DNA of 64,000 nt, taken from NCBI GenBank assembly GCA_965203135.1, contig CBDBBO010000001.1, positions 1,678,071 through 1,742,070 on the forward strand, given 5' to 3'. Below are positions 1,470 through 34,197 of the stretch, one piece after another (positions within the stretch are counted from its first letter, which is position 1; each line of letters begins with the position of its first letter). This DNA comes from Dehalococcoidia bacterium. Its GTDB lineage: Bacteria > Chloroflexota > Dehalococcoidia > Lucifugimonadales > CATOSD01. Position numbers and translations under genes: made by a program. The notes under the pieces were generated by a model. It had not been told where the DNA came from. It saw only the letters and a list, made by a program, of their open reading frames with translations, and did not search any database.

Positions 1470-1513
1470 TTCTGCCACCCTGAGCGTAGCCTTCTGCCAC
1501 CCTGAGCGTAGCC
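1470..1513 (+). repeat. Perfect 22-nt tandem duplication (ttctgccaccctgagcgtagcc x2) in an intergenic region
   Basis: Read directly: unit 1 at 1470-1491 and unit 2 at 1492-1513. It is followed by the 'cttcgacaggctcagcatgaca' motif. Related motifs occur at about 12425 and about 31240. Confidence 0.8.
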
Positions 1514-8506: not shown

Positions 8507-10177
8507 CTATTGGCCGGTGTAGAGCTCGGTGTCGGGGTGGAAGGCGTACCAGCCGAACCAGTAGGCCTCGTGGGAGGGGACGCGCGGCAGTACGGTCTCC
8601 GGCTCCAGCGGGCGGAACAGCCCGTGCTCGGCTATGTGCCACACGTTGCCGGCGGAGTCGCGCAGTTCCTGGGGCGGCGGACCGTTGGGGTCGCTCACCA
8701 CGTAGCCGTCCGGCACGGTGAACACCTCGTCGCCGCGCTCGTAGGCAGCCGCGCCGAGCGTGGTGGCCGAACCCGATACGAGGACGACGTTTACGCCGCC
8801 GACCTGGTCGTTGACCACGCGCTCGGTCTGCAGCGCATCCAGGGAGTAGGCCTTGCTGACGTCGCCCACACGGACGATGATGACGTAGGCCTTGGTGTCC
8901 AGCCTGTCGTCGCGCTGCCAGATGGGGAACATCGTGAGGGGGGAGGTCCGGTATTCGAAGTAGAACGACTGCGGGTTGTTCTCAGACTGGTACACCTCTG
9001 GCGGATAGATGCCGGTGTTGCGTGTGATAACCGTGGTGTCCGGGTGCTCCTCGCGCCACTCCTGCCAGGTTGTGAGGTTGACGGGGAAGAAATCGAGCTT
9101 GATGCCGCTGTCGGCCAGCTCGCCGATTACCGGCTCACCCAGAAGCTGGCTCCAGATGCTGCGCGTGGTCCTGTCGTACATCAGCTTGTTGCTACGGTAC
9201 AGCAGGCCGGAGGTGCCGAAGGTTGTCGGCTCCCCATCTATCTTCGCGGAATACACGATTCCGGCGCCGCAGAGCGTTCACCACGCCAGGGCGATGGGTT
9301 CGCCTCCCAGCACGTCGTTCACCATCTCGTGCGGGTTGGTGATGCGCAGCGGGTAGGCGCGGTGCTCGCCGTTTATGGACACACCGAAAACCCTGTCGCG
9401 CGCCAGTAGGTAGGGGGCCTCGTCCGCGGGGACCGCTTCGGGATCGCGCAGGTCGGGTATGCCGTCTATGGCGACGCCGCCCCAGGTGACCTCTGTGAGG
9501 TCTATCCGAGAGGTCTCCCCGGAGTCGGCGAGCAGCTCGATGTAGCCCTCGTCTATGAAGGACAGCAGGTTGGCCTTCCAGGCGGCGTAGCCCTCGGGCG
9601 GGCGGTAGCTTTCGCGGTTCGGGCCGTACCACTCCATCCACTTGTCCCACTCCTGCCGATCGAAGTCCTGACCGGTGAGCGAGCGGAGGGTCGACGCGGC
9701 AAGCTCCTGTTTTTCTTCGTCGAAGAAGAAGCGGAGCGACTCGATGAGGACCGGGACCTGGGAGACGTCTCGCTCGCGCAGGATGTCGGCCAGGGCCTGT
9801 TCGGTTTCGGGCTTTTCGAATCCAACCTTCGGAAACACCCTGTACATGGTGGCGGTCGGGTCGTAGTTCGGGTCGGGGGATGCCGGGGGCGCGGGGGTGA
9901 GCGCCGCGCTCGGGGCCGGCGGGGTGGTGGACGCAGCGGGGGCGATGGCGGCGGTGGGTGCGGGCTGCGCCGTGGGCGCCGTCGATCCGCCAAGCGCAGG
10001 CGGGGTTGTGGGCGCGGCTGGCGCGACCGCAGAAGTTGGCGGCGGCGGCGATGCCACAGGCACAGCCGGGATCGTGGGTTGCGGAGGCGCGGCGGTATCG
10101 CCTCCGCAGCCATAGGCCGCCACCGCGATCGCGGCGGCGGCCAGCACGAGGAGCAGACGTATCGGGCGAGGCGTCAA
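8507..10177 (-). CDS. DUF3179-family lipoprotein interrupted by a single in-frame TGA (9278-9280) at the first Cys of its CxxC motif. This is either a selenocysteine candidate or a nonsense pseudogene.
   Basis: Track ORFs 9278..10177 and 8507..9256 are in the same frame. The read-through peptide is '...GGEPIALAW-[TGA]-TLCGAGIVYSAKIDGEPTTFGTSGLLYRSNKLMYDRTTRSIW...'. From memory, DUF3179 proteins carry 'YCPLC...FGVSGLL...MYDRxT'. The N-terminus is a lipoprotein signal ('LAAAAIAVAAYGC') followed by a Pro/Ala/Thr linker. TTG start lies 6 nt after the upstream gene's stop. Confidence 0.7.
9245..9266 (-). promoter_or_regulatory. Candidate bacterial SECIS-like hairpin downstream of the in-frame UGA
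   Basis: The mRNA reads 5'-CGCCGGAAU CGUGU AUUCCGCG-3' and starts 12 nt after the UGA. There is a 6-bp stem (CCGGAA-U / A-UUCCG region) extendable by 2 bp across a bulged C. The 5-nt apical loop contains GU. The fold was done by eye only. Confidence 0.4.
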
Positions 10178-12289: not shown

Positions 12290-12726
12290 GAAAAAATCTG
12301 CTCGATTCTGCTACATTCCGCTCATTCCGTAGCTGGGCGGCCCGATGTTTCTGTCACTTTCTGTGAGCCAGGTTGTTAAGGTTCGTCACGCGCATTGCGC
12401 AGGATGTGGCAGAACGCGACCCGTTCGACAAGCTCAAGGCAGGCTCCGGCCCTATTCCGCGACTGGCGGTGATGGAGTCTATGGGATGGATAGTAGCACG
12501 TGCGTGCTATAGAATCAAGAGGGTGGTTCAGGGCTGCGGGAGGGGGTCGGTCACTCGCGTGGGCGACGGTAGTACGAATGTGCATATATTGCAATCAATA
12601 AGGTTGGCGAAAATGCGGTTTTGGGGCGGATTTGTGGGGAGAAATGGCACACGAATGGGAACCGGTGGGACGTGGATGAGAATGGGTGTGGCGTTTGGGT
12701 TACGCGGTTGGGGTGCGATGGGACAG
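12290..12726 (-). repeat. Left copy of a roughly 450-500 bp imperfect inverted repeat (partner at 31031-31530), carrying a promoter-like TTGATT-N17-TACTAT on the minus strand
   Basis: The reverse complement aligns collinearly with 31031-31530. Shared perfect blocks include 'cgcgtaacccaaacgccacac' (21 nt), 'caccctcttgattctatag' (19 nt), 'gtcgcgttctgc' and 'ccgcccagctacgg'. The alignment was done by eye. Confidence 0.65.
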
Positions 12727-12971
12727 CGGTCTTGAGCCTTCAGATGTGAAGGCACACTTGTTTTGGGGCGAGGAGTCAGTATGTGATAGCCCTGCCCGTG
12801 TTAGGCCCTATTGGTGCTATGTTGCTACAGTTTGGAATATGTTAATCTGGTGGCCGCAAAGTGGTCATGTATGCACTTCCAGTCTAATTCATAACTGTAG
12901 TGCTGACATAGGAAAGCAAAGTTATGAATAGGGTACCTGTGGATAGAGAAGAGGTGTGGTAAGGGGCGCCA

Positions 12972-13997
12972 ATGGATCAAGAACGGGCGAAAAGGACCGT
13001 CGGCTGCTTGTTCAGTGGGATGGGAGGATTCGCCTCTGGGCTTGCAAAGTCGGGCTTTGAGATCAGTTGGGCTACCGACAACGACAAGTACGCCTGCGCG
13101 ACATTCCGACACCGATTCCCAGACGTAAACTTGGTCGAGAAAGATGTTCGCAGTCTGTCTGTGTTTGGCGACAGCCTAACTGCGGTTGATGTGCTGACCG
13201 CCGGATTCCCCTGCCAAAGTTTCTCTCAAGCAGGTACGCGACGAGGCCTAGATGACCCACGTGGCAGACTATTTTATGAGATACCGCGTCTCCTGTCAGA
13301 GTACGAACCGGAAGCGCGGCCTCCTCTGGTAATCTTGGAGAATGTGCCGCACCTACTTTATGGAGCAGGAAAGGCTTGGTTCGATAGCGTCCGCCGTGCA
13401 ATTCGGCGTGCGGGGTATTGGTTCAGGGAGCAGTCGTGCTGGACGGTAAACGTGAAAGACGCAACAAGTCTTCCCCAAGACCGAGAACGACTGTTTTTGG
13501 TCGCCGCATCGCGCGCACACTTCAGCTTCAACCCCTTCACTCCTCCCTCTTTGGCCGACACTGGAAACGGGCATCTAAGGGCCCTCAGCGAATTTGTTGA
13601 CCGCACCAAGCCAGGGGCCCCAGAGGCATACTTGCCCAAGGACAACCGCTATTACAAGATGATCGACCGAGAGATGGCATCTGGGGAGTCAGTTTCAAAT
13701 ATATTCCAGTTGAGGCGGTCATACGTCCGTGAAAAGAAAAATGGGTTGTGTCCAACGCTTACTGCCAACATGGGCATTGGAGGACACAATGTGCCATTTG
13801 TGCGAGACTCTTGGGGAATTCGCCGGCTCAGCGTAGAAGAGGTGGCTCGACTACAAGGATTCGACGAGACGGAGTCGCTCTTCCCTGACATGCCGGCGGC
13901 AGAGAAGTATCGACTCTTAGGTAACGCGGTGTGTGTCCACCTAGCTCGTCTAGTGGGGCAGGCCTGCGCAGATATTCTTGACGGGCAAACAGCATGA
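12972..13997 (+). CDS. dcm: DNA (cytosine-5)-methyltransferase
   Basis: Canonical C5-MTase motifs are present. These are I 'FSGMGGF', IV 'GFPCQSFS', VI 'ILENVPHLL', VIII 'QDRERLFLV', IX 'RRLSVEEVARLQGF' and X 'GNAVCV'. Confidence 0.93.
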   Translation: MDQERAKRTVGCLFSGMGGFASGLAKSGFEISWATDNDKYACATFRHRFPDVNLVEKDVRSLSVFGDSLTAVDVLTAGFPCQSFSQAGTRRGLDDPRGRLFYEIPRLLSEYEPEARPPLVILENVPHLLYGAGKAWFDSVRRAIRRAGYWFREQSCWTVNVKDATSLPQDRERLFLVAASRAHFSFNPFTPPSLADTGNGHLRALSEFVDRTKPGAPEAYLPKDNRYYKMIDREMASGESVSNIFQLRRSYVREKKNGLCPTLTANMGIGGHNVPFVRDSWGIRRLSVEEVARLQGFDETESLFPDMPAAEKYRLLGNAVCVHLARLVGQACADILDGQTA

Positions 13998-15949
13998 CTT
14001 CAGACAATTCCGGCATCGGCTGGAACTTTCCACCCACCAATGGAGGGCGCGTCGACGGCTTTAACGATCCCGGTATCGCGCACTTTAGCGGTTCTCCGTA
14101 CTCTAGCCTCGCTCGAGAGACAATACAGAACTCGCTAGATGCGAGAGATAGATATGATCAGCCCGTGCATGTGTCTTTTGAAATGGTCGAGTTGCCGCCG
14201 GCCGACATGGGGCGAGCCGAACTTTCCCTCGCTATAGACGCTAGTCGCGGAGAGGTAGAGCCTGATGACCCTGCGCAACCTGAGCTAATCCGTGCTCAAG
14301 AAGTGCTCGCAAGGGAGAGGGTTCCGTTCTTACGTGTATCGGACCGGAATACGACCGGATTACGAGATAAGCAATGGCGGACTCTGGTCAAAATGCAGGG
14401 CGCGAGCTTTAAGGCAGACCTTGAAGGTGCGGGAGGCTCCTTTGGCATAGGCAAATACGCACCATTTGCCGTATCGACACTCCGCACAGTGTTCTATTGG
14501 ACTTGTTTTAGGGAGAACGGCAGGAATGTCGAACGGTTCCAGGGCAAGTGCGTTCTTATGTCGCACCATCAAGCAGGTACAGAAGTTCAGGGTACCGGGT
14601 TCTTCGGTCTGAGGGACGGCTGTGTCGAAATGACGACCTCCATTCCCGAGTGCTTCCGGCTGACTACGCAAGATTCGCTTCCTATACACGGCACGAGTCT
14701 CGCCATCGCTGGCTTCATGGAAGCCCAGGATTGGCGCAGACGGGTTGCCTCAAGTGTAATCGAGAACTTCTTCTATGCTATTGACCGGGGTCAACTTACG
14801 GTACTCATTGAGCCTGGTGACAAAGACGGAGACTTGTTTGAAATTGATGACGCTACCCTAGGTGATTGCTTCGCGACACTGCTGGACGACAACTCAGACT
14901 CCGAGGAAGACCAGGCTGAAGGGGGAACATCACTTAGTCAGGCTAGAGCGTTCTGGGAGATTTCAGACGCCGATGTGGTCCCAATCGAGAAACAGGACCA
15001 AGACCTCGGACACTGCCGGCTATGGATTCGTGTTCAAGATGGCCTCCCGAGCAGAGTAGGGTTTGTAAGGCGGACAGGCATGCTTGTCACGACGCAACAA
15101 CGCAACTTGATTCGCTTCCCAGGGTTTCGGGACTTCGCGGCTCTGTGCGTCTTTGAGGACCCTGCCGGCAACGAACTCTTGCGACGAATGGAGAACCCAA
15201 GACATGATCAATTCGAGCCGGACCGACTGCCGGAAGCAGATAGACAGCGAGGCAGACGGGCTCTGAAACGAATTACAGATTGGATACGGAGTGAAGTGCG
15301 AAAGTTAGCAGGTCCGCCTGAGGGTGGCAGATCCACAGTGCTGTCGGAGCTAGCTGTCTACCTGCCAGACTTGCAGCCTGATGAACCGTTTGAAGATGCT
15401 GGCAGCGAGAACGGAGGCACGGGGGAACCGGGTTTTGGGGAACGTGTCACCCTTGCACTTAAGCCCGTTCGTCGACCTACTCCGCCTACTTTACCCGCTA
15501 GCGAAGAATCGAACGAGGACGGAGACAGCCCCGGGGACGACGTAGGCAATGCTGGCGGGGGAGGTACTGGTGAAGGGGAAGGTGGAGGGGGCACAGACGG
15601 TACTGGTGAAGGGGAAGGTGAAGGCGGTACAGGGAGCCGTGGCGGCCGTCGAGCCAGAGTGAGAGGGATTCCCATATCTGGAGTCCGCATTTTGTCGATA
15701 CCTGGCCAAGAGAACTGCTACCAATTGAGCTTTCGCTCCAGCACCGGCGGTGAGGCGAGTCTTGAATTAGAAGAAGCCGGAGACTCGACTACTATCCGGC
15801 GCGACGACATCCGGCCTGTTGCTGAAGGTGTCTCCCTTGGGTGTGTACCACTGTTGGAAGGTCAGAGAACAACGATAGACATCACCGCCGACAGACCTAT
15901 CGGAGAAAGGGCGTGGCGTCTACGCGCCGTAGCCAACGACGGCGACTAA
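13994..15949 (+). CDS. GHKL-superfamily ATPase-like protein (paraMORC/MutL-like head) with a large uncharacterised C-terminal region and a Gly/Glu-rich linker
   Basis: ATGA overlap with dcm. N-box 'RETIQNSLDA', G1-like 'VSDRNTTGL' and G2 box 'GGSFGIGKYAPF' are present. The remaining roughly 450 aa are unassignable by eye. Confidence 0.7.
   Translation: MTSDNSGIGWNFPPTNGGRVDGFNDPGIAHFSGSPYSSLARETIQNSLDARDRYDQPVHVSFEMVELPPADMGRAELSLAIDASRGEVEPDDPAQPELIRAQEVLARERVPFLRVSDRNTTGLRDKQWRTLVKMQGASFKADLEGAGGSFGIGKYAPFAVSTLRTVFYWTCFRENGRNVERFQGKCVLMSHHQAGTEVQGTGFFGLRDGCVEMTTSIPECFRLTTQDSLPIHGTSLAIAGFMEAQDWRRRVASSVIENFFYAIDRGQLTVLIEPGDKDGDLFEIDDATLGDCFATLLDDNSDSEEDQAEGGTSLSQARAFWEISDADVVPIEKQDQDLGHCRLWIRVQDGLPSRVGFVRRTGMLVTTQQRNLIRFPGFRDFAALCVFEDPAGNELLRRMENPRHDQFEPDRLPEADRQRGRRALKRITDWIRSEVRKLAGPPEGGRSTVLSELAVYLPDLQPDEPFEDAGSENGGTGEPGFGERVTLALKPVRRPTPPTLPASEESNEDGDSPGDDVGNAGGGGTGEGEGGGGTDGTGEGEGEGGTGSRGGRRARVRGIPISGVRILSIPGQENCYQLSFRSSTGGEASLELEEAGDSTTIRRDDIRPVAEGVSLGCVPLLEGQRTTIDITADRPIGERAWRLRAVANDGD
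15563..15620 (+). repeat. In-frame 22-nt perfect repeat at a 36-nt period encoding the G/E-rich linker
   Basis: 'ggtactggtgaaggggaaggtg' occurs at 15563-15584 and 15599-15620. The peptide is 'GTGEGEGGGGTDGTGEGEGEGGTG'. Confidence 0.85.
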
Positions 15950-15951
15950 CC

Positions 15952-16809
15952 ATGAGGTTTGATCCAGGAAAGGCTTGGCCCCATCCCGTGCTCCGTCCGC
16001 CAACTTATGGAGACGATTATCCGCGTGCGGAGTTTGAGGTTGAAATAGAAGTTGAGCGTATCCAAGGCAGCACATCCGTAGACGTCACAGCAGAGTTTGA
16101 GCTCAGCGACCAAGACCTGCTCGGTCTCGTTGTGGATGGAGCGGCTCAGTATGTCTTGCTAATCAAGGCGTCAAGAACCCACTTCCGAGAGATGATCTCT
16201 GCGGAAGAACCGCTCATTGAGAGGATCTTTTCGGGAGGGGACTTGTCTGGTCGTGTGGAGTTCGCGCCCTTTCTGATATGCACAAAGGATCTGACCGACT
16301 TTCGTGCTGAAGGGTGGCACTCAGATTTCACAGGGCGGACATTTAACATATCCGCTGGCTCAGTGCTGGCAGAGGATGTGCCGAAGGACTATTGGGTCGA
16401 CACGGCTGATGAGGCGCCCCTCGGTTCGATCTTTGGGCACAAGTTCCGGCCGGACGTGCCCAACGGGCGCTGGGAACTTGAGCTGGCGGAAGAGCGGGTC
16501 TGGATCGTGATGTCCAAATCGGATTCGGAGTTGTACGCGGAGGCGCGAGAGCGGGCTAGACGTAGTCCTGAAGGTCAGAATTTGATGAATGGCCTGTACT
16601 TGCCTGCTCTGATTGCAGTACTGAACGAAGTGGACAGGAACATCGGAGACTACAGTGACTACCGATGGTTCGCGTCGCTTGACCATCGCCTACAGACGGT
16701 TGATTGCAAGGAGTTGGGGGTCTCGGACGCCAATCGTGTGGTCGATGCTCAAAGAGTCCTCGACATGCCCTTCACCAAGATGCCCATGATTGCAGAAGCA
16801 GGGACTTAG
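15952..16809 (+). CDS. Hypothetical protein (285 aa), no recognisable family
   Basis: The ATG at 15952 lies 2 nt after the upstream stop and has normal amino-acid composition. The track ORF start at 15841 overlaps the upstream gene and was rejected. I could not find a clean PD-(D/E)xK, HNH or P-loop motif. Confidence 0.7.
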   Translation: MRFDPGKAWPHPVLRPPTYGDDYPRAEFEVEIEVERIQGSTSVDVTAEFELSDQDLLGLVVDGAAQYVLLIKASRTHFREMISAEEPLIERIFSGGDLSGRVEFAPFLICTKDLTDFRAEGWHSDFTGRTFNISAGSVLAEDVPKDYWVDTADEAPLGSIFGHKFRPDVPNGRWELELAEERVWIVMSKSDSELYAEARERARRSPEGQNLMNGLYLPALIAVLNEVDRNIGDYSDYRWFASLDHRLQTVDCKELGVSDANRVVDAQRVLDMPFTKMPMIAEAGT

Positions 16810-16814
16810 GACGT

Positions 16815-17576
16815 ATGCCCAACCTGAGGTATTACACGTCTGCGGTCGTTGAGGACCTTCGAACAAGAGTCGCGGAGCACCTTGACTGGTACTATGCACC
16901 AGAGGGCAGTCCTTTTTCTGTTGCGCCTGTAGGAGGCGTAAGGGAATCGAGCATAACAGCCCCTAAGCTCGCTGGGCTCTTGGCTGTGAACGAAGAGCGC
17001 CCATTTGCCACTGACGTCGAAAACGCACTCGCAGTGTATGAGGCTCTATCCGCATTGACGCCGCACCAAGCCTCAATAGAGCGGATGTGGGTGTATCTGT
17101 GCCACCACGATTGCCCTCAGTACGTCGCCGCGCGTTGGCTGAACCGACGGCCAGAGTCGGATGAGGACGCAGTTCGCGAGGTTCGGAATCACTTTTTTGC
17201 GGTCGGCAATCGAGCGCTCATACGGGATAATGCGGTCTCAAGGCTTTGGTGGCTCGGAAAAATCGCCTATGACGTTGATCCTAACGCCCCGCGTGAGTTT
17301 CTGACGATTCTCCTCCACCGGCAGGATGTGCGTTCTGCTTTAATTGAGCGTCCGTCAGTGTCGACGAATCGGCGAGTGTTGCGCGGAATATATGAGGTAA
17401 TGGCGGAGTACTGGTCAGACGGCGGAGCACTGTTCACTCGGGAGATTTTTCGGTCGTGGATGATCGCTTTGAACCGTCGCGGCGGAGTAATTCTCTTAGA
17501 CGCACTCCCCGAAGACGCGTTGAGACAGCTATTGCGTGAAGAGGCGCGTGTGGCTATAGAAGAGTATTCGGCTTAG
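16815..17576 (+). CDS. Hypothetical protein (253 aa), no recognisable family
   Basis: The ATG at 16815 lies 5 nt after the upstream stop. The protein is helical-looking ('ERMWVYLCHHDCPQYVAARWLNRR', 'AVSRLWWLGKIAY'). No catalytic motif was recognised. Confidence 0.7.
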   Translation: MPNLRYYTSAVVEDLRTRVAEHLDWYYAPEGSPFSVAPVGGVRESSITAPKLAGLLAVNEERPFATDVENALAVYEALSALTPHQASIERMWVYLCHHDCPQYVAARWLNRRPESDEDAVREVRNHFFAVGNRALIRDNAVSRLWWLGKIAYDVDPNAPREFLTILLHRQDVRSALIERPSVSTNRRVLRGIYEVMAEYWSDGGALFTREIFRSWMIALNRRGGVILLDALPEDALRQLLREEARVAIEEYSA

Positions 17577-17590
17577 ATTAGTAGGCTGCA

Positions 17591-18043
17591 TTGACTGATA
17601 ACCTGAGTCCTGAAGACCGTTCATGGTGCATGTCGCGGATACGCTCTCGCGATATGAAACCAGAGTTGGCCGTCCGCTCGATGGTACATCGACTTGGATA
17701 TAGGTTCCGCCTGCATAGGCGCGATTTGCCCGGTTCACCCGACTTGGTGCTGCCACGCCATGGGGCGGTGATTTTCGTCAATGGTTGTTTCTGGCACTGG
17801 CACCCCGATCCTGACTGTCCGATCGCAGGGTTGCCAAAATCGAATCTGGACTACTGGGAACCAAAGTTGACTCGAACCCGGATCAGAGACCAAGAACATA
17901 CAGACAATCTTGAGGCAGATGGGTGGAGGGTATTGGTAGTTTGGGAATGTCAGTTGAGGAGCCCTGTTGCAGCCCTTGAGATGATAGCCGAGTTCCTCGA
18001 GGCTACAGACGCCAAGATTCTCAGGCCTGTAGCAGTACGGTGA
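17591..18043 (+). CDS. vsr: Very-short-patch repair endonuclease
   Basis: 'SPEDRSWCMSRIRSRDMKPELAVRSMVHRLGYRFRLHRRDLPGSPDLVLPRHGAVIFVNGCFWHWH' is the canonical Vsr pattern. TTG start lies 14 nt after the upstream stop. Confidence 0.92.
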   Translation: MTDNLSPEDRSWCMSRIRSRDMKPELAVRSMVHRLGYRFRLHRRDLPGSPDLVLPRHGAVIFVNGCFWHWHPDPDCPIAGLPKSNLDYWEPKLTRTRIRDQEHTDNLEADGWRVLVVWECQLRSPVAALEMIAEFLEATDAKILRPVAVR

Positions 18044-19677: not shown

Positions 19678-19971
19678 GGCGATCCTCGACAGGCGTTCGC
19701 CCGTAGTGTGGGCAGGCTACCATGCGGCCTGTGCAGGGGCGTAGGCTAACGGGGGCGTGGTACTCGGGGCTTTCACCCTGACCCATTCGGCAGGCTCAGG
19801 GCAGGCACACTAGATTCCTCGGCTACGCTCGGAATGGCAGAGGTGGGAGGGGGAAGGGAACAAACGGCTTGTTTCCCATGCGGGCCGGGCTGTTGTACAC
19901 TACGCCGCAGCCGTTGCGTTGGCCCTGTTTTGTATTTGGACAGTATTCGTAGCACCCGACGAGGCGGAGCG

Positions 19972-21402
19972 ATGGACTTCGACGCATACGACCTCGACCC
20001 CACCATATATGACGAGATGTTCCTGCCCGGCGGCGAGCCGCGCGAGCACGTCCGGCTTCTCCACGACGAGATGCTGGAACTCACCGCCGAGGACCTGGAG
20101 AGCATCCAGGAGAGGGTTACCCGCTCGTTCTCCACCGAGGGCATTACGTTCACGGTGTACGGAGACGACGAGGCGGACGAGCGGATCATCCCAATCGACT
20201 GCGTTCCGCGCGTGCTTTCGGGCGAGGAGTGGAACGGCCTGGAGGCCGGGCTGACCCAGCGGCTCAAGGCGCTCAATATGTTCCTGGAGGACGCCTACGG
20301 CCCGGCGCGCATAATCGAGGACGGCGTGATTCCGGTGGACGTGGTGAGGGGCTGTCCCCAGTACCGCCTGGAGATGCGCGGGTTCTCCGCGCCCCATGGC
20401 ACGTGGGTCGCCATCTGCGGCACCGACATCGTGCGCACCAACGACGGCTTCATGGTGCTGGAGGACAACCTGCGCGTGCCGTCCGGGGTGTCCTACATGC
20501 TGGCGAACCGCAAGGCCGCCAAGGCGAGCCTGCGCAGACTGTACCGCAACTCCCGCGTGCGCGACGTGGAGCACTACGGCCGGATGCTGGTGGAGACGCT
20601 GCGGGAGCTCGCACCGCGTGGGCAGTCCGATCCTTCCATCGCGCTGCTGACGCCGGGCGTGTACAACTCCGCCTTCTACGAGCACATGTTCCTGGCCCAC
20701 GAGCTGGGCGCGGAGCTGGTGGAGGGCCGCGACCTGCTGGTGAACGACGGGTTCGTTTACATGCGCACCACTTCCGGTCTGAGGCGGGTGGACGTGATAT
20801 ACCGCCGCGTGGACGACGACTTCATCGACCCGCTGGTGTTCCGTCCCGACTCGCTGCTGGGCGTGCCGGGGCTGATGCACGCCTACAAGCAGGGCAACGT
20901 GACACTGGTGAACGCGCCGGGCACGGGCGTGGCCGACGACAAGAGCGTGTACGCCTACGTGCCCGACATGATCCGCTACTACCTGTCCGAGGAGCCGCTG
21001 CTGGCCAGCGTGGAGACTTACCTGTGCCGGCGGCCGGAGGACCTGGAGTACACGCTGGACAACCTGGCGAACCTGGTGGTCAAGCGCGTGGGCGAGTCGG
21101 GCGGCTACGGGATGCTGATAGGCCCCCACGCCACGCCCGAGGAGCGGGATGAGTACGCGAAGGGGGTACGGGCGGACCCGGCGGACTTCATTTCGCAGCC
21201 GGTGCTGTCGCTGTCGCGCTCGCCGTGCGTCATCGACGGCCAGTTCGAGCCGCGCCACGTGGACCTGCGCCCGTTCGTGCTGCACGGACGGGAGACGCGC
21301 ATAGTGCCGGGCGCGTTCTGCCGGGTCGCGCTGCGCAGGGGCAGCCTGGTGGTGAACTCCAGCCAGGGCGGCGGCGGCAAGGACCTGTGGGTGCTGGAGT
21401 AG
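19972..21402 (+). CDS. Circularly permuted type-2 ATP-grasp protein (DUF404/DUF407)
   Basis: 'YDEMF...PREH...', 'ITFTVYGDDEADERIIPIDCVPRVL', 'VLEDNLRVPSGVSYMLANR' and 'VNAPGTGVADDKSVYAYVP' are characteristic. The start is at MDFDAY (ATG 19972) with an upstream GAGGCGGAG. Confidence 0.88.
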   Translation: MDFDAYDLDPTIYDEMFLPGGEPREHVRLLHDEMLELTAEDLESIQERVTRSFSTEGITFTVYGDDEADERIIPIDCVPRVLSGEEWNGLEAGLTQRLKALNMFLEDAYGPARIIEDGVIPVDVVRGCPQYRLEMRGFSAPHGTWVAICGTDIVRTNDGFMVLEDNLRVPSGVSYMLANRKAAKASLRRLYRNSRVRDVEHYGRMLVETLRELAPRGQSDPSIALLTPGVYNSAFYEHMFLAHELGAELVEGRDLLVNDGFVYMRTTSGLRRVDVIYRRVDDDFIDPLVFRPDSLLGVPGLMHAYKQGNVTLVNAPGTGVADDKSVYAYVPDMIRYYLSEEPLLASVETYLCRRPEDLEYTLDNLANLVVKRVGESGGYGMLIGPHATPEERDEYAKGVRADPADFISQPVLSLSRSPCVIDGQFEPRHVDLRPFVLHGRETRIVPGAFCRVALRRGSLVVNSSQGGGGKDLWVLE

Positions 21403-23069: not shown

Positions 23070-23897
23070 ATGCCCCAAAGTTACACACTGCACGAAGATT
23101 ACCTGCCCTGTGGGGTTTGTGGCGTAGACATATCTGACCAACCCCGCGGAGATAAGCGCTGCCGCGCCTGCGCACGGATGTATCCATTTGTCTGTCTAGA
23201 GTGCGGTGCAAACACGTCACAATTGACTCCGTGGTGGAATCGGTCAAATCGGTTAAAGCTGTCCCCCAGCGATCTGGAATACGAGGAGGTTATGCTGCAA
23301 AGCCCTATGTACTGTCCTATGTACTGTCCTGAGTGTGCCCAAAAGAACCCACACTTCTGTCTTTACTGCGGAGCAGACATGTCTGGCGAACACCGAGAAT
23401 TTGTGCGCTGTAGCGGATGCAGCCGTAGCCGCGTGGCAATGCCCAAGTTCGTTCAAGGGAGATCCATCCGATCCGGTAGCTTTTGTACAGCCTGTGGAAA
23501 ACGCCTTCCCTATTCGCGGAGAGCCAGTGTGGACTGTCTAGAATGTGAGCAGAAACGGGAGAGCCAGCCAGCCCCCCGCTTTTGCTTACTCTGTGACGCG
23601 GACATAGCGTACCTACACGATGACACTAGGCACTGCCCCCAGTGCGACGGTAAGCGTCGGGAAGACGCTGTAGACAAGTGGCACGAGTGGGTGGACGGGT
23701 GGCATGACGTCAGTATAGAAGTGGATGTGGCATATTATAAAATACTGAGATCCTGCATAATCGAAGGCTGTACGCCGTGGTTCGACCCGAGCCACGAGGA
23801 AGAGGCAGGGCACAGGCCAATGGATGAGATTGAAATGGCGAAAGCAACAAAGGAAATACTTGAGCTTGTGAAAGTAAGAAATGCAGCCCAAGCCTAG
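23070..23897 (+). CDS. Cys-rich multi-zinc-ribbon protein (about 10 CxxC pairs), orphan
   Basis: Repeated 'C-x2-C ... C-x2-C' knuckles are present (CGVC/CRAC, CLEC, CPEC/CLYC, CSGC, CTAC, CLEC, CLLC, CPQC). The gene is visibly AT-richer and sits between DUF1800 and DUF1501 genes, which are normally adjacent. Confidence 0.65.
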   Translation: MPQSYTLHEDYLPCGVCGVDISDQPRGDKRCRACARMYPFVCLECGANTSQLTPWWNRSNRLKLSPSDLEYEEVMLQSPMYCPMYCPECAQKNPHFCLYCGADMSGEHREFVRCSGCSRSRVAMPKFVQGRSIRSGSFCTACGKRLPYSRRASVDCLECEQKRESQPAPRFCLLCDADIAYLHDDTRHCPQCDGKRREDAVDKWHEWVDGWHDVSIEVDVAYYKILRSCIIEGCTPWFDPSHEEEAGHRPMDEIEMAKATKEILELVKVRNAAQA

Positions 23898-26212: not shown

Positions 26213-29200
26213 ATGTCCAAGCGTAGCAGGCGCAAGAAACAGCGACGCAAGGAAAAGCGGCGCAATGCTCCAGAGGTGCGGCTCGAAAGGGAGCCGTCGG
26301 TGAATTCGGGGCCACAGGCTTCGACCTCGCCGATTGGGAACGTCCGACGGCCGATTTTGAACCCATGGGGCTCGCCAGTGAGGTCTCAACCCAGTTCGAC
26401 CGAGAAGACCCAACGGAAGGACTGGACTCCCATGCGGCACGCCAGCGCGGACTTGGCCTACACCGACCGGAAAGGCCCGACGGAAGAACTGGACCCGATA
26501 CCGCCAACCATTGAGGACTCGACTCAGACTGAATGGGCAGGACCGTCAGGCCCGATCGGCGTATACATCGACGAGGAACGGCGAGGGACACTCAGCGCCT
26601 ACCGCAGCCAACCGAACCTTGTAGACGAACACGCCAATCACGAGCAAGACACGGCCCGGGGCGGCTACGCTTATCGGCAGCTGTTCGAGTTGGTGCAGAA
26701 TAGCGCCGACGCCCTGGCTGATTTGGACGGCGGGCGCATCGAATTGCGCCTGACCTCCGACTATCTCTACTGCGCCGATGATGGACGGGCCATCGACTCG
26801 GACGGCGTGAGAGCCCTCATGTTTTCCCACCTGTCTCCCAAGCGCGGAACAGCGGAAATCGGGAGATTTGGGCTAGGATTCAAGTCTGTCCCTGGCGTCA
26901 CCGATTCCCCCGAGTTTTTCAGCCGCTCCGGTTCATTCCGGTTCGACGTCGAAAGAGCGCGGGAAGAGATACGACGTGTCGCCCCTGACGCCGAGCGCTA
27001 CCCAGCGCTGCGGCTGCCTGTTGCTATCGACCCACTGCCGGAGATGGAGGCCGACACAGTTCTACGCGATTTGGCCGATTGGGCTACCAACATCGTGCGC
27101 CTGCCGCTCAAGCCAGGGGCCAGGGAGTCCCTGTTGCAGCAGGCCAAGGACTTCCCGCCGGAGTTTCTGCTGTTCGTCGAGCACGTGTCGGAACTGAACA
27201 TCCAAGCCGATAGCGATGCCCAGCGCTCCATCAGGCTGAGGCGCCTAGGCGACTTCCGTAAGCCCGCTAACGGTGATCAGCGACCTTCTATGAAAGTGGC
27301 AGTGCCGAAGCTGATCCGCGAAAGCGATTTCCATGTGCTCGCGGACGGTGATAAGGAAGCTCAGTGGATGGTCGTTAGTACCGTTCACAAGCTTTCCGAG
27401 GACGCTAGGGCCGACAGCCGAAGCCTCGATGACGCCACGGAAGTAGAGATCAAGTGGGCGGCCCCTGTAGAAAGGTTGAATGAGCCTGGCCGCTTCTGGG
27501 CATTCTTTCCCACGCAGACTTCGAGCTTGCTCGCCGGCATACTTAACGCGCCGTGGAAGACAAACGAGGACCGGCAGAACCTGCTGCCTGGGGTCTACAA
27601 CGACGAGCTGATTGACGCGGCGGCGGCAATGGTGGCCAAAGCTGTGCCACGGTTGTCCAACAAGAGCGTACCCGCTCGCCATCTTGACGCACTGCCTCGT
27701 CGAGAAGAAGCCGGTGACAGTGAACACAGCAAGAGACTTCGGGATCAACTGCAGGCGAACCTGCGTGGTGTGAGAATCGTTCCAGACCAGTTGGGCATAC
27801 TCCACAGGCCCACCGAGCTCATGTACGCTCCGACCGAAATCACTGACCCGAGACGGGGGGCTGCACGTGCGCTCGGGAGGTGGGGCGAGTACGAGGGCCG
27901 ACCCAAGAACTGGGCGCACCACAGCGCGCTCACTCGTAACAGGTTAGCGGCCATCAGATCGGTCATGCCAAACAGGGTTGTTCGTAGTTCCTACGGAGGG
28001 GTGACGTTTACGACTCAGCATGGTCCCGTGAAACTCGAGGTGGCAACGGTGGATGAGTGGCTGCAAGCGTTGGTAGACGATGCGGATATCCCGGAGAGGC
28101 ATCTCGAGAGATCGGCCACCGCGATCCAGACTGCGGCGCTGATACCAGAAGCGATCCGGCAGGGCAATAGCCTCGGTCGAATAGTGCTTACGACTAGGGG
28201 TAGCTGGGTCGAACCTGATCCCGAATCCGTGTTTCTCGGCGGCGGGTTTGGCGGCGGCTCAGCCACGGTGGTGCATCCGCAACTGGAGGCCGATCCGGAA
28301 ACACTGAGCGCGCTGAAGGCGCTCGGCATAGGGCCCGCTTCAGCGGAGACTGAGCTCAGTGCTGCGGCCGATAAACTGCTGGTTTACAGACCGTACTACA
28401 GGGGAACGCCGCCAGATGGCGACTGGCTCAGTTTCTGGCGTCTTGCACGGAACGTTGAGCATGACACCGCTTATGAGATCATTCAAGCCCATGAGCACTG
28501 GCAGAGTTCGCTGCGTGTTCGCACAATCGCAGAGGTGTGGCGCTCCCTGAACCATGCCTTGCTACCCGGACCAATCATTCCGGCAGACGGTAGTGGCGAT
28601 CCCGACATGGCAATAGACATACGCTTTCACGAGGCGGATCTTTCCTTGCTGAGGCAGCTTGGTGCGGTGGACACGCCCTCTGCGGGGCGCGAACTGTCAC
28701 TGGAGCATATGTGGAGATTTCGTGGGAAGTGCAGAAGCACTTTCATTAGATCCGCAGAGAGTGAAGTAGGGCATTCACCGCGTGACCATATGCTCAACTT
28801 TGAGATTCTCGCTACCACAAGCGGTCCTTTGGATGTGTTAGAGCTTCTTTCCGAATACCAGAACGCGGAGTACACGTGGCGTCTCCTCAGCTTGCGCGAC
28901 ACCTACTCACAGTGGACGATGCGTCATGACACCCGAGACATTTACCCGCCCATGGATTTCGATTCGCCAGCACTGGAAGTGCTTCGGGAACACGGGCGGA
29001 TCGTTACGGATGAGGGCATTCGACCGCTCTCTGACGGGCTGGGCAATCCACCAAAAGACATTGCAGTGTTGCGCAAGCTGCTTTCGCACCCTCAAGCCGA
29101 CAGAATTAGAGAAGCCTTCGGACTGCCGGACGACGAGGAGTTACCGGTCGAGCCGCTTGACGAGGACGCGCCCATACCGCTGCTCGACGAGTGGCCAGGT

Positions 29201-31021
29201 CTCAAGCCTCACATCACGGTACAGCAAGGCAGTCTCGATTTGGTTCGCTGTGACGGGTTTCGCACATTTGGCGGGGTTGAACCGGAATGTGTCCTGAGGG
29301 GCGGTATCGTGTACGTGGTTCGCCAATACGAGGAGGAGCGTGAGCTTCGGTCTGTGCTGCGGGAGATAGGCGTCAGTCTCAGAGAGAGCGAGATTAGACG
29401 GGTGCTCCTGGGTATCACTCCAGAAGACATACAGAAGGCACGGGCCAAGGTCAGGAACTGTGACACCGACGAGGAACGTCTTCTGGGGGCAGTGGGTGAA
29501 CGAGCATTGAGGCGTGGGTTGCCGTCGGGGCTTCTCGCGATACTCGAAGAAGAGAGCCTCGGAGCGCTTCCGGGTGTTGAGGTTGCGAAAGCCGCTATCG
29601 CCACGTATCACACCGGCGCGCTGCGAGAGTACCGCTACGCGATAGAGCACCTGGATCCTCCACGCCAGTGGGCAGGGCGATCCAGCGCAATCCAGTTCGT
29701 GCGCTCTCTCGGCTTCAGCGATGAGTGGGCCGGCGAATCAAACTCTCGGCAAGAGCCGTTCCTGGAAGTCGACGGCCCTCTCTCGCTTCCCAAACTCCAT
29801 CCATACCAGCGTGTCGTCGTTGACAACACGAGAAGCCTGCTGCGCTCCGGCGGCGCACTCGGAGAACGACGAGGTATGATAAGCATGCCCACAGGCTCGG
29901 GCAAGACTCGCGTCGCGGTGCAAGCGATCGTCGAGGCTATGCGGAAGGACGGGTTCAAGGGCGGAGTCATCTGGGTTGCCGACCGCCGGGAACTCTGTGA
30001 TCAGGCGGTGGAGGCTTGGAGGGAGGTATGGGCAAGCGAGGGCACTGAGAAGGCGCGGCTTCGAATCTCGAGGATGTGGGGAGGTCAGGCTAGACCGCGG
30101 CCAGACGCCGATATGCATGTTATTGTCGCGACGATTCAGACGCTTTACGCCAAGACCATGTCTCCGGGGAACGATTACGACTTTCTAGCAGACTTCAAGC
30201 TGCTTGTGTTTGACGAAGCCCACCGGTCAATATCGGCTTCATCTACCTCCGTAATGGAAGAATTGGGGCTGACACGGTGGCGAAGGGAGCATGAACCACT
30301 ACTCATCGGCCTGACCGCGACGCCGTACAGGGGGCGCGACGAAGATGAGACACGGCGGCTCGTGAATCGCTATGGACGGAACCGGCTGGACTCCGGTGCG
30401 TTCAAAAGCGACCGCCCGGAGGACGTGATATCGGAACTGCAATCCATGCGGGTGCTTGCGCGAGCCGACCACGACCTCATTGAGGGCGGCAAGTTTACAA
30501 TGTCTCCAGACGAGCTGAAGCAATCACTGGATACTCCTTGGTTGCCCCAAAGCGTCGAGAGCCGGATCGCCGGCAATGCCGAGCGGACCCGGCGCATCAT
30601 CAGAGCATACCATGAGCACATCGGCTCAGACTGGCCTGCCTTGGTGTTCGCGACGTCCGTAGAACACTCGCAGACGGTTGCTGCCTTGCTCACTCGCGAT
30701 GGAATCAGGGCCCGCGCCGTAAGCGCGAACACCGAAGCTTCAGTTCGTAGGCGAATCGTGGAAGAGTTTCGGGCGGGTGAAATCGACGCGCTGGTGAACT
30801 ACGGCATTTTCCGTGAGGGCTTCGACGCGCCGAGGACCAGGGCAATAGTTGTGGCTCGTCCGGTCTACAGCCCCAACCTGTACTTCCAGATGATTGGCAG
30901 GGGACTGAGGGGTGTGAAGAATGGTGGCAACGATAGGTGTCTCATCCTCAACGTGAGAGACAACATCGCCAACTACCGGCGCAGTCTGGCGTTTTCCGAA
31001 CTGGACTGGCTGTGGGACTGA
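26213..31021 (+). CDS. Giant (1602 aa) fusion protein: basic N-tail, sacsin-like GHKL ATPase domain, about 900 aa of unassigned sequence, and a C-terminal SF2 (DEAH, ResIII-like) helicase
   Basis: GHKL motifs are 'QLFELVQNSADALAD' (N box), 'CADDGRAID' and 'GRFGLGFKSV' (G2). Helicase motifs are 'LHPYQ', I 'SMPTGSGKT', II 'LLVFDEAHRS', III 'GLTATPYRG', V 'FREGFDAP' and VI 'QMIGRGLRG'. It is a single uninterrupted ORF with lower GC than its flanks by eye. Confidence 0.8.
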   Translation: MSKRSRRKKQRRKEKRRNAPEVRLEREPSVNSGPQASTSPIGNVRRPILNPWGSPVRSQPSSTEKTQRKDWTPMRHASADLAYTDRKGPTEELDPIPPTIEDSTQTEWAGPSGPIGVYIDEERRGTLSAYRSQPNLVDEHANHEQDTARGGYAYRQLFELVQNSADALADLDGGRIELRLTSDYLYCADDGRAIDSDGVRALMFSHLSPKRGTAEIGRFGLGFKSVPGVTDSPEFFSRSGSFRFDVERAREEIRRVAPDAERYPALRLPVAIDPLPEMEADTVLRDLADWATNIVRLPLKPGARESLLQQAKDFPPEFLLFVEHVSELNIQADSDAQRSIRLRRLGDFRKPANGDQRPSMKVAVPKLIRESDFHVLADGDKEAQWMVVSTVHKLSEDARADSRSLDDATEVEIKWAAPVERLNEPGRFWAFFPTQTSSLLAGILNAPWKTNEDRQNLLPGVYNDELIDAAAAMVAKAVPRLSNKSVPARHLDALPRREEAGDSEHSKRLRDQLQANLRGVRIVPDQLGILHRPTELMYAPTEITDPRRGAARALGRWGEYEGRPKNWAHHSALTRNRLAAIRSVMPNRVVRSSYGGVTFTTQHGPVKLEVATVDEWLQALVDDADIPERHLERSATAIQTAALIPEAIRQGNSLGRIVLTTRGSWVEPDPESVFLGGGFGGGSATVVHPQLEADPETLSALKALGIGPASAETELSAAADKLLVYRPYYRGTPPDGDWLSFWRLARNVEHDTAYEIIQAHEHWQSSLRVRTIAEVWRSLNHALLPGPIIPADGSGDPDMAIDIRFHEADLSLLRQLGAVDTPSAGRELSLEHMWRFRGKCRSTFIRSAESEVGHSPRDHMLNFEILATTSGPLDVLELLSEYQNAEYTWRLLSLRDTYSQWTMRHDTRDIYPPMDFDSPALEVLREHGRIVTDEGIRPLSDGLGNPPKDIAVLRKLLSHPQADRIREAFGLPDDEELPVEPLDEDAPIPLLDEWPGLKPHITVQQGSLDLVRCDGFRTFGGVEPECVLRGGIVYVVRQYEEERELRSVLREIGVSLRESEIRRVLLGITPEDIQKARAKVRNCDTDEERLLGAVGERALRRGLPSGLLAILEEESLGALPGVEVAKAAIATYHTGALREYRYAIEHLDPPRQWAGRSSAIQFVRSLGFSDEWAGESNSRQEPFLEVDGPLSLPKLHPYQRVVVDNTRSLLRSGGALGERRGMISMPTGSGKTRVAVQAIVEAMRKDGFKGGVIWVADRRELCDQAVEAWREVWASEGTEKARLRISRMWGGQARPRPDADMHVIVATIQTLYAKTMSPGNDYDFLADFKLLVFDEAHRSISASSTSVMEELGLTRWRREHEPLLIGLTATPYRGRDEDETRRLVNRYGRNRLDSGAFKSDRPEDVISELQSMRVLARADHDLIEGGKFTMSPDELKQSLDTPWLPQSVESRIAGNAERTRRIIRAYHEHIGSDWPALVFATSVEHSQTVAALLTRDGIRARAVSANTEASVRRRIVEEFRAGEIDALVNYGIFREGFDAPRTRAIVVARPVYSPNLYFQMIGRGLRGVKNGGNDRCLILNVRDNIANYRRSLAFSELDWLWD

Positions 31022-31030
31022 CCAAAACCC

Positions 31031-31530
31031 CTGTCCCAAAGCATCCCCAATCGCGTAACCCAAACGCCACACACTTGCTCTTCCACAGGCCCACTGCCGC
31101 CACCCATTTGCGCTACTCTGCCACACAAATTCCCGCTTTCAGGCCCACTCCCACCACATTATGTCAAGTGGCCCTGCCTCGCGCCGACAAGTCGGCGGAT
31201 TCACCCTGGCGTAGCGGCGAGTCTCCGACCCTTCCGTTCCGAGCGTAGCCGAGTAATCTGGGGCGTTTACCCGCGCCTATGACCCTGAACAACACCCTCT
31301 TGATTCTATAGTACGTGCGTGCTATTTTCTACTTGGCAGGCGCTGTGACCGCCCGTTGGCGGCATGGGAAAGCCAGAATCCGGCCCGGCACCACCGTCGC
31401 GTTCTGCGACATTATGGCGTCCTGCCAGTGACAGACCCTGACTCCGGTGTACTGCGCGAATGACAAGAGAATCGAACCGCCCAGCTACGGGATGCATCAA
31501 AATGCATCAGAATGCAACGAATTTTCGTAA
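31031..31530 (+). repeat. Right copy of the imperfect inverted repeat (partner at 12290-12726), carrying a promoter-like TTGATT-N17-TATTTT facing the amt gene
   Basis: It is collinear with the reverse complement of 12290-12726 (see that feature). It begins about 10 nt after the giant gene's stop. Confidence 0.65.
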
Positions 31531-33228: not shown

Positions 33229-34197
33229 ATGCTGTCCCGCAGCGCCCAGGGACTCTACTGGCTGGGCCGCTACCTGGAGCGGGCGGAGCACCTGTGCCGC
33301 CTGCTCCAGCTCCAGACCGAGGCGCTCGTGGACAGGCCCATCCAGGAGATTTATCACGGCTGGCGCCGGATATACCGCTGCATCGGAGCCCAGCCGACGG
33401 TCGGCCTGTTCGATCCGGGGGCAGATGACAACTACACCCTGGCCGACTCGTACACGCTGGCCGACGAGTTGACGTTCGAGCGCTCGAATCCCGCGTCGGT
33501 GTGGAGTTGCTTCGCGCTGGGCCGGGAGAACGCCCGGCAGATGCGGCACTGCATCAGCGCGGAGATGTGGACGTCGCTGAACGTCCCATACCTGCGGCTG
33601 CGGGAGATGTCGATCCAGAATATATGGGCGACCTCGCCGGAGAGCTTCTACGCGCAGACCGCCGCGGACGTCAACACCTTCAATGGCGTCGCCGGAGCGA
33701 CGATGTATCGCGACGAGGGCTGGCGCTTTCTGCAGCTCGGGCAGTTCGTCGAACGCTCGCAACTCACGGCTTCGCTGCTGCTGGCTCAGATGGGCATAGA
33801 CGCCCCTGAGCTGGAAGACACCTACGCCGGCTGGAACGGCCTGCTGCGGATTTACCATGCCTCCGAGATTTACGCGAGCAACTACGGTGTGGAGGTGCAG
33901 CCCGGCCAGGTTCTGGACCTGCTCGCCACAGACCCGCAACTGCCAAACTCGCTATGCCGTTCCATCGACAAGGTGTCGGAGGAGATTGGTCACCTGGCGG
34001 CCGGTCCCGACCAGGCGTCCAACGGCGCCGCGCGGCGCCTGACGGGTCGTGCGCGGGCCATGGTCCACTACGATTGGGCCGACGTGGACGACCATCGGGG
34101 TCTGCTGGAGCGCGTGCGGGGATTCTGCCGCGATCTGCACGGCCTGGTGGTTACCGCCTACTTCGACTATCCCATAGGGGATTGGCCCGCGCGCTGA
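33229..34197 (+). CDS. Alpha-E domain protein (DUF403)
   Basis: 'MLSRSAQGLYWLGRYLERAEHLCRLL' and 'YRDEGWRFLQLGQFVERSQ' are characteristic of the alpha-E family. Confidence 0.85.
   Translation: MLSRSAQGLYWLGRYLERAEHLCRLLQLQTEALVDRPIQEIYHGWRRIYRCIGAQPTVGLFDPGADDNYTLADSYTLADELTFERSNPASVWSCFALGRENARQMRHCISAEMWTSLNVPYLRLREMSIQNIWATSPESFYAQTAADVNTFNGVAGATMYRDEGWRFLQLGQFVERSQLTASLLLAQMGIDAPELEDTYAGWNGLLRIYHASEIYASNYGVEVQPGQVLDLLATDPQLPNSLCRSIDKVSEEIGHLAAGPDQASNGAARRLTGRARAMVHYDWADVDDHRGLLERVRGFCRDLHGLVVTAYFDYPIGDWPAR

Follow-up and report, generated by a model that had tools for sequence, protein, structure and literature searches.

A candidate mobile conflict gene in a Dehalococcoidia genome joins a sacsin-type GHKL ATPase to a superfamily 2 helicase behind an apparently swappable N-terminus

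The window analysed here is the whole 64,000-nucleotide stretch of contig CBDBBO010000001.1 from a Dehalococcoidia bacterium (positions 1,678,071 to 1,742,070). At 26213-31021 (+) it carries a large gene, a single unbroken open reading frame (ORF) of 1602 codons ended by a TGA stop, whose product joins a GHKL ATPase module to a superfamily 2 (SF2) helicase core. An AGGTGAG element resembling a Shine-Dalgarno sequence lies 6 nt 5' of the ATG at 26213. The gene stands between one for an NHL-repeat protein (upstream) and one for an ammonium transporter (Amt, downstream), and its composition is foreign to that of its flanks: its G+C content is 0.598, as against 0.657 and 0.659 on the two sides, and its G+C content at third codon positions is 0.67, as against 0.85-0.91 in the neighbouring genes. 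An earlier, sequence-only reading of this DNA had reported an uninterrupted 1602-residue ORF that opens with a Lys/Arg-rich tail, is AT-richer than its neighbours and lacks a partner methyltransferase, and it was right on each of these points. Indeed, no methyltransferase or nuclease is adjacent to the gene in the window, and neither recurs across the 80 related loci described below. An exact look-up of the protein in the contig index returned no record.

The protein begins with a conserved basic peptide, MSKRSRRKKQRRKEKRR (residues 1-17; 26213..26263, +), which contains 12 Lys or Arg in its best 16-residue window, matches no Pfam or NCBIfam model and is the clade-specific form of a variable N-terminal module. 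A public prediction identical to the window protein (P0001, 1529 residues) begins at M74 (26432) instead of M1 (26213). The syntenic ortholog in a related Dehalococcoidia genome (locus L083) opens with MSKRNRRKKQKRKRNR, the same motif as in the basic tail of the window protein, and the protein start follows the pattern M[AS]KR[KR][KR]RN[RQ]K.. in most of the other 16 basic-tail loci. Because this motif also opens the L083 ortholog and most of the other basic-tail proteins, M1 at 26213 is the predicted true start, the basic tail being no over-extension, and the public start at M74 is probably wrong. In the closest relative (locus L001), a homologous N-terminal extension is present but interrupted by an in-frame stop codon. 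The tail is followed by a poorly conserved linker rich in Pro, Ser and Thr (residues 18-107; 26264..26533, +), recognized by its composition, homologous in part to the L001 protein and probably disordered. In an alignment of 41 full-length homologs, conservation runs from W108 onward.

The GHKL ATPase module spans residues 108-545 (26534..27847, +) and consists of a Bergerat-fold core (residues ~155-241) followed by an alpha/beta region. The three motifs of the GHKL superfamily, ExxxNxxD (I), DxGxG-like (II) and GxxGxG (III), are all present and conserved, as ELVQNSADA (residues 159-167), DDGRAID (189-195) and GRFGLGFKSV (217-226), and E159, N163, D166, D189, G191, G217, G220 and G222 are invariant among the 41 homologs. 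A further invariant motif, NAPWKTNEDRQNLL, lies at residues 445-458, in the alpha/beta region that follows the core. Judging from these motifs, the ATPase is predicted to be catalytically intact.

The sequence-only reading had proposed a head of the sacsin type, a probable assignment on which the family models are divided. The NCBIfam model of the sacsin ATP-binding domain (NF047352) scored 62.2 bits, above its cut-off of 50; the Pfam model SACS (PF25794) scored 24.9 bits, below its cut-off of 32.8, and HATPase_c_3 was not detected in the protein with Pfam. A profile of the region compared with the sequences in the PDB matched sacsin (5v44-5v47, E 0.005) and the N-domains of Hsp90. We also modelled the module with AlphaFold2 (mean predicted local distance difference test, pLDDT, 71; predicted template-modelling score, pTM, 0.74). 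Foldseek matched the model to the N-domains of GRP94 and Hsp90 (probability 1.00, E 7e-4), to topoisomerase VI-B and, over 430-480 alignment columns, to full-length Hsp90 comprising the N and M domains. The modelled module has a predicted Bergerat fold. Finally, the PADLOC profile of TmtA, the validated anti-phage protein of the Tiamat system, matched residues 118-545 (E 3.9e-50) through profile positions 12-421 of 1538, and other TmtA profiles were likewise matched solely in their N-terminal part. By this match, the GHKL module and the TmtA N-terminal part are homologous and have a common ancestry.

The central region (residues 546-1193; 27848..29791, +) is of mixed alpha/beta character, specific to the family and without a recognizable domain. 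AlphaFold2 modelled it with a mean pLDDT of 76.7, folding being confident in parts. It had no match in Pfam or among PDB sequences, the best Foldseek hits (E 0.39 in the PDB, 0.15 in BFVD) assigned no fold, and hhalign comparisons of its segments revealed no internal repeats. Nevertheless, its conservation reaches about residue 945 among relatives that are only 33-40% identical to the query, and about residue 932 in an Arthrobacter plasmid protein; on the Arthrobacter plasmid p2MP, a homolog of the GHKL and central regions sits in an operon of the MORC/paraMORC-SF2 type. The invariant polar residues of the region are H569, D796, H806, H905, H959, C1013, D1086, H1133 and E1139. The earlier description of some 900 residues without a motif holds for the 650 residues from about 546 to 1193; it does not for residues ~240-545, where the homology with the N-terminal part of TmtA is seen. 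The nuclease or sensor domain that had been thought possible there was not found by structure prediction and Foldseek searches of the PDB and BFVD.

The C-terminal part (residues 1194-1602; 29792..31018, +) is an SF2 helicase or translocase core, identified by Pfam and by its motifs. Motifs I (PTGSGKT, residues 1226-1232; 29888-29908, +), II (DEAH, 1334-1337; 30212-30223, +), III (TATP, 1368-1371; 30314-30325, +) and VI (QMIGRGLRG, 1559-1567; 30887-30913, +) are all invariant in the 41 homologs. ResIII (95.8 bits, 3.5e-27), DEAD (61.1 bits, 1.4e-16) and Helicase_C (47 bits, 3.4e-12) all score above their Pfam gathering thresholds, and the complete core that had been announced is thus present with both RecA-like lobes. 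The closest solved relatives are RadD, the 953-residue putative helicase 7clg, Hef and XPB. Identity as RadD (YejH) itself was rejected, the equivalog model NF053632 giving 109.6 bits, far under its cut-off of 720. The window protein showed no nuclease domain along its whole length, and the qualification "nucleic-acid-targeting" that the sequence-only reading had attached to it was not borne out in this respect.

The protein belongs to what, by our database searches, is a large and so far unnamed family, its architecture being neither rare nor unique. More than 120 clusters are 55-72% identical to the query, nearly all of them spanning 92-96% of it, and an exhaustive search with residues 104-1195 retrieved 512 representative clusters (at 50% identity) at E<=1e-30. 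Most related proteins are about 1,500 residues long. In a second tier, at 33-40% identity, the six members that we sampled all share the layout of sacsin-type GHKL, ResIII and Helicase_C, in ~1,550-1,830 residues. The source databases give no informative name, merely "superfamily II DNA or RNA helicase"; no full-length model in PADLOC-DB v2.0.0 covers the protein, the partial matches being to the N-terminal part of TmtA and to the helicase parts of PbeA, mREase_IV, DpdF and REase_I. Our search of the literature likewise found no described system of BrnT, GHKL or sacsin-helicase type with such an architecture. No described system was thus matched over its full length.

A scan of 185,579 species genomes yielded 382 related stretches, and the analyses of loci use the best 80, a sample biased towards relatives of the query. 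These 80 relatives are all from metagenome-assembled genomes (MAGs). They come from Dehalococcoidia, Caldilineaceae, Acidobacteriota, Binatia, Alpha- and Gammaproteobacteria, Acidimicrobiia, Spirochaetia, Gemmatimonadota, Rhodothermales and Opitutales, and at least six belong to taxa named after sponges (Poriferihabitaceae, Spongiisociaceae, Spongiisocius, Poriferisodalis), one Poriferihabitaceae record having been reported from a sponge metagenome (PMC12859430).

The sole neighbour that recurs in the 80 loci is a small gene directly upstream, on the same strand, and its nature goes with that of the N-terminus of the large protein. In 30 loci the protein has a BrnA-like N-terminus, and in 28 of these a brnT gene lies upstream, typically overlapping the large gene by 4 nt. 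Five loci carry instead the N-terminal half of the HI1420 antidote, and in all five a HI1419-type RelE/ParE toxin gene is found 9 nt upstream. The conserved basic peptide, present in 16 loci and in the window, has no linked toxin, and the 28 loci with a short or unclassified N-terminus have none upstream either. In this count L002 was taken as an HI1420 locus and L028, which has a short RelE-like toxin remnant upstream, was set aside. A toxin gene is adjacent in 33 of the 80 relatives. The large gene had been described as encoding a stand-alone single polypeptide; this stands for the window, where no BrnT or RelE-like ORF lies within 1.5 kb of the gene, but not for the family, since in some 40% of the relatives sampled the large gene and an RNase toxin gene together make up a two-gene module.

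The upstream BrnT matches PF04365 (E 4e-24) and the toxin structure 7vd7 in the PDB (E 1.6e-15). The RelE/ParE toxins of L002 and L012 match TIGR02683 above its cut-off (E 8.6e-38), and the other three were recognized by phmmer similarity to the L002 toxin; one of the five genes is truncated by an insertion sequence. As for the partner sequences, the BrnT-linked large proteins start with MKxEYDFSKGERGRFYRP..., which contains a BrnA-like DFSxGxRGxFYRP motif, and no separate brnA gene lies beside these copies. The same motif, LDWSDARRGVFYRPVKQ, occurs in the canonical BrnA of locus L054, just ahead of its ribbon-helix-helix part, and the link to BrnA rests on this short motif shared with one canonical BrnA. 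When the L054 BrnA was searched against all N-termini, the top 12 were all of the BrnA-like type, with weak scores (best E 0.003). In L002 and L008, the first ~55 residues align with positions 2-54 of the model of the HI1420 antidote, which has 89 positions (E 3e-10; PF21716, E 7.5e-5); L012, L019 and L022 show the same N-terminal pattern, by eye or by regular expression. The antitoxin-derived fragments of the large proteins come without the DNA-binding domain of the antitoxin, be it ribbon-helix-helix or helix-turn-helix. Toxins of two unrelated families, along with their respective antitoxin fragments, are therefore joined to the same position of the protein. Moreover, one 1920-residue member (P0030, L082 1366-7128) starts with a helix-turn-helix (weak match) and an ImmA/IrrE peptidase of family M78 with a HELAH motif (PF06114, E 3e-9), a combination that is a fourth type of N-terminal module. 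Judged from these alignments and domain matches, the extreme N-terminus is a predicted swappable module.

A separate, canonical BrnT/BrnA pair was observed in L054 (8631-9189), ~550-800 nt upstream of a basic-tail member; it provides the only BrnT near a basic-tail locus. No conserved upstream DNA element was found in the basic-tail loci beyond close relatives.

By several measures, the gene appears to behave as a horizontally mobile one that turns over fast. The 80 loci share no synteny and no conserved partner beyond the upstream toxins, the widely shared clusters of neighbouring ORFs being shadow ORFs inside the gene itself, and neighbourhoods vary across phyla. Mean identity between phyla (0.53-0.61) is barely under that within phyla (0.60-0.72), and several nearest neighbours by identity, at ~0.67-0.73, cross phylum boundaries. 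The closest copy, L001, is 83% identical in nucleotide sequence and lies in an unrelated context, similarity ending at the gene borders. The copy in L083 (71-72% identical) is perfectly syntenic with the window over 19.8-40.4 kb. In this relative the proteins on either side show 75-97% identity, 9 of 11 being at 84-97%, as against 71% for the large protein; either the gene therefore diverges at a much higher rate than those around it, or a divergent allele has taken its place. Disrupted copies were also observed. The L001 extension carries a nonsense codon (10072-10141), L070 is split into pieces of 545 and 971 residues, L038 is cut to 1019 residues and L045 is truncated at its N-terminus. Split products on one contig are frequent among the cluster members, which suggests that copies of the family often decay. 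Among the neighbours of the homologs, a minority match PADLOC models (Type I and III methyltransferases, a Type II restriction endonuclease, and DpdF-, PsyrT- and PDC-type proteins).

The surroundings of the gene in the window show further features. The gene had been said to end beside the right copy of an inverted repeat, and indeed an imperfect repeat of ~480 nt is present, with arms at 31021-31502 and 12298-12738 that are 70-74% alike, the right arm beginning within 2-24 nt of the stop codon. Neither arm contains a tRNA or matches an Rfam family. They were not found in the syntenic relative L083 or in any other related locus, and the idea that the repeat is part of the mobile unit of the gene was rejected because of this absence. 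The repeat encloses 18.3 kb, and its right arm has an additional ~40 nt that recur as a partial copy at 19812-19849, just 5' of a gene for a circularly permuted ATP-grasp protein (CP_ATPgrasp).

Within the repeat, 8.2 kb upstream of the large gene, lies a five-gene island of low G+C content (~55%; 12972-18043), which comprises genes for a Dcm C5-methyltransferase (PF00145), a 651-residue protein, a 322-residue protein without a match, a DUF6339 protein and a Vsr endonuclease. The 651-residue protein has GHKL-like motifs (ETIQNSLDA and GGSFGIGKYA) read by eye, has no Pfam match, and resembles neither the HATPase_c_3 protein of the Arthrobacter operon nor any PDB chain. The island resembles the Dcm/Vsr-linked neighbourhoods of the paraMORC type described in PMC2292703. 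The sequence-only reading had drawn attention to two GHKL loci 8 kb apart, both of which the repeat encloses; the second locus does exist at 8.2 kb, but its GHKL character is a matter of motifs read by eye, and L083 has other genes at this place. In L083, positions 1-4100, the counterpart of window 12-19.8 kb upstream of CP_ATPgrasp, hold DDE transposases and a GmrSD_N gene resembling Type IV restriction, where the window holds the Dcm/Vsr island and a phosphotriesterase gene. The region upstream of CP_ATPgrasp thus has the look of a hotspot at which defence genes vary.

Three other features were recorded. A low-G+C (53%) gene at 23070-23897, which encodes a 275-residue double-zinc-ribbon protein, lies between the DUF1800 and DUF1501 genes; it is probably a recent insertion, because these two genes adjoin each other in L083. 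Genes for circularly permuted ATP-grasp and Alpha-E proteins are usually neighbours. In the window, CP_ATPgrasp (19834-21402) and Alpha-E (33229-34197) are 11.8 kb apart, with the DUF1800, DUF1501, NHL, large and Amt genes between them; this interruption is also found in L083 and therefore predates the split of the two genomes. The sole Rfam match in the window is a T-box leader (RF00230, 110 bits) at 61717-62034 (-).

The reading that we favour, with confidence evenly divided, is that this two-motor protein would act as a horizontally mobile gene of the conflict (defence) type, that is, as an ATP-driven nucleic-acid sensor that controls an N-terminal effector. The homology with TmtA, the toxin-coupled relatives, the foreign composition, the fast divergence, the varied neighbourhoods and the disrupted copies lend comparative support to the defence or genome-surveillance role that the sequence-only reading had proposed. 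Precedents exist for both aspects of such an arrangement. Comparative genomics has established that GHKL ATPases cooperate with SF2 helicases in systems of the restriction–modification (R-M) type (PMC2292703), and BrnT-like toxins occur upstream of CoCoNuT systems (PMC11090510).

In molecular terms, the large protein would be an ATP-dependent sensor and switch. The helicase would load and translocate on foreign or aberrant nucleic acid, and the GHKL module would undergo ATP-dependent dimerization or clamping, thereby altering the action of the N-terminal module. In the toxin-linked clades, a tethered RNase would be released, or no longer be neutralized, and translation would be shut down (abortive infection). 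In the clade of the window protein, the tether would have been replaced by the Lys/Arg-rich peptide, with no linked toxin; this peptide would most likely bind nucleic acid or bring in an unlinked partner, both motors acting directly on the target.

A more specific proposal, which we put forward tentatively and consider rather less probable, is that the family constitutes a "sensor-antitoxin" class of immunity genes. In such a class, a GHKL-helicase of ~1,500 residues would replace the DNA-binding domain of an antitoxin, tether an RNase of the BrnT or RelE/ParE type and free it upon encountering foreign nucleic acid; the N-terminus would be a plug-in slot for effectors, and the class would have spread horizontally through MAGs of many phyla. 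Conflict systems that combine GHKL and helicase proteins are already known, as is toxin-coupled defence logic. What appear to be undescribed are the fusion, the family-specific core and the plug-in N-terminus derived from antitoxins.

Several observations weigh against the conflict-gene reading or limit its reach. The window protein has no toxin partner and yielded no match to a nuclease or other effector domain, and the mechanism proposed for the toxin-linked relatives may not transfer to the window copy. The similarity to the BrnA motif is short and, taken alone, statistically weak (E 0.003 in a small database), and no Pfam or NCBIfam model detects the BrnA-like peptide. Most of the genes in the two positions nearest to the large gene on either side serve metabolism or transport and do not form dense defence islands, only a minority of neighbours matching PADLOC models. 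No relatives were found among the viral contigs of IMG/VR, and plasmids hold no close relative, the matches being at most 40% identical, with a single one that extends over more than 28% of the query. The same chromosomal site is kept in L083, which denotes some vertical stability. The central 650 residues could conceal an activity that would change the picture. Finally, PADLOC-DB v2.0.0 dates from 2023, and a newer catalogue might list the family.

Among the alternatives, the strongest, although we consider it unlikely, is that the protein is a nuclease-less component of an R-M-like or Type IV-like system: a fused version of the MORC/paraMORC GHKL and SF2 pair that would loop or translocate DNA between recognition and cleavage sites, the nuclease or methyltransferase being unlinked. 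The helicase does resemble those of Type I, III and IV restriction systems, and the island with its Dcm and Vsr genes lies 8 kb upstream in the window. However, no methyltransferase or nuclease recurs beside the gene in the 80 loci, the syntenic L083 is devoid of the Dcm/Vsr island, and the partners that do recur are RNase toxins, not DNases.

The toxin linkage itself lends itself to another explanation, namely that it is an addiction device and nothing else: loss of the large gene would free the toxin, which would not be an immune effector, and the linkage would say little about the ATPase-helicase. The architecture is indeed that of a type II toxin-antitoxin pair whose antitoxin has had its DNA-binding domain replaced, and many clades, including that of the window, have no toxin at all. 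Yet toxins of two unrelated families, and an ImmA/IrrE peptidase as well, have been independently recruited to the same N-terminal position, which a regulated effector slot fits better, and disrupted copies still occur. We judge this explanation distinctly improbable.

Still less credit is given to the possibility that the gene encodes a housekeeping helicase for DNA repair or recombination, similar to RadD and equipped with a chaperone-type ATPase, which we deem very unlikely. RadD is the best NCBIfam and PDB match of the helicase, the chromosomal position is retained in L083, and the neighbours are mostly metabolic genes. Against this stand the RadD score, which falls far short of its cut-off, and the restricted distribution of the gene, which has no conserved synteny and is represented by just 382 stretches in the 185,579 species genomes. 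Its foreign composition, its divergence, faster than that of its flanks, its varied contexts with high cross-phylum similarity, its toxin-coupled relatives and its frequent pseudogenized copies do not fit a housekeeping role either.

Lastly, it is hardly credible that the protein is a host-interaction factor of sponge symbionts, that is, a eukaryote-like protein of the sacsin type whose basic tail would serve as a signal akin to a nuclear localization signal (NLS) in host cells: the tail has an NLS-like composition, the best 80 relatives are MAGs, with the sponge-named taxa and the sponge metagenome record mentioned above, and sponges encode many sacsin-like proteins (PMC3710099), but no secretion signal or linkage to a secretion system was seen, the tail is interchangeable with fragments of bacterial antitoxins paired with bacterial toxins, sacsin-type GHKL modules are widespread in bacteria (for instance in plasmid-borne DUF3883 proteins from soil and clinical bacteria), and the habitat bias may merely reflect the origin of the query.

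If the conflict-gene reading is correct, a widespread unnamed family of two-motor proteins, tied to Tiamat, would join the catalogue of prokaryotic conflict systems, and GHKL ATPases and helicases could be revealed as switches of immunity. The swappable N-terminus would offer an experimental handle: for the toxin-linked relatives, the reading predicts neutralization of the toxin through the first ~40 residues of the large protein and release upon ATP-dependent sensing. The family resides largely in uncultured organisms known from MAGs of many phyla, several of them in sponge-named taxa, whose defence repertoires would be poorly covered by current catalogues.

Comparison with known systems places the family close to several of them and within none. 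Like TmtA of Tiamat, which is a single-gene system, the window protein is a large single polypeptide with a homologous N-terminal module of the sacsin GHKL type. The resemblance does not extend beyond roughly the first quarter of the TmtA profile: identity as TmtA was rejected since the match stops at profile position 421 of 1538 and the C-terminus is another one. Tiamat, whose mechanism is uncharacterized (PMC12926258), has been classed among the systems with a PD-(D/E)XK structure (bioRxiv 10.1101/2024.10.26.620412), and related plasmid proteins are annotated DUF3883. The window family has a unique region of 650 residues and an SF2 helicase instead: Pfam gave no match to a PD-(D/E)XK or DUF3883-type C-terminus in the window protein, which ends in ResIII and Helicase_C.

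With the MORC/paraMORC-SF2 R-M systems (Iyer, Abhiman and Aravind 2008, PMC2292703), the family shares lateral mobility and the combination of a GHKL ATPase and an SF2 helicase of the Rad25/ResIII type. By contrast with these systems, the window protein fuses both motors in one chain, its GHKL module is of the sacsin/Hsp90 type and not of the MORC type, and no methyltransferase, Vsr or nuclease partner recurs in the family. The helicase core has the motifs of RadD, XPB, Hef and SauUSI-type SF2 translocases, which provide the best sequence matches, but all of these lack an N-terminal GHKL module, and the scores are far below family cut-offs. Finally, the toxin-linked relatives are organized like the BrnT/BrnA and HI1419/HI1420 pairs, with the toxin gene first, the partner gene overlapping it or a few nt away, and the antitoxin motif at the N-terminus of the partner. 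They differ from these pairs in that the ribbon-helix-helix or helix-turn-helix part of the antitoxin is replaced by a two-motor protein of ~1,470 residues, and the window copy, with neither toxin nor antitoxin motif, stands apart from type II toxin-antitoxin pairs altogether.

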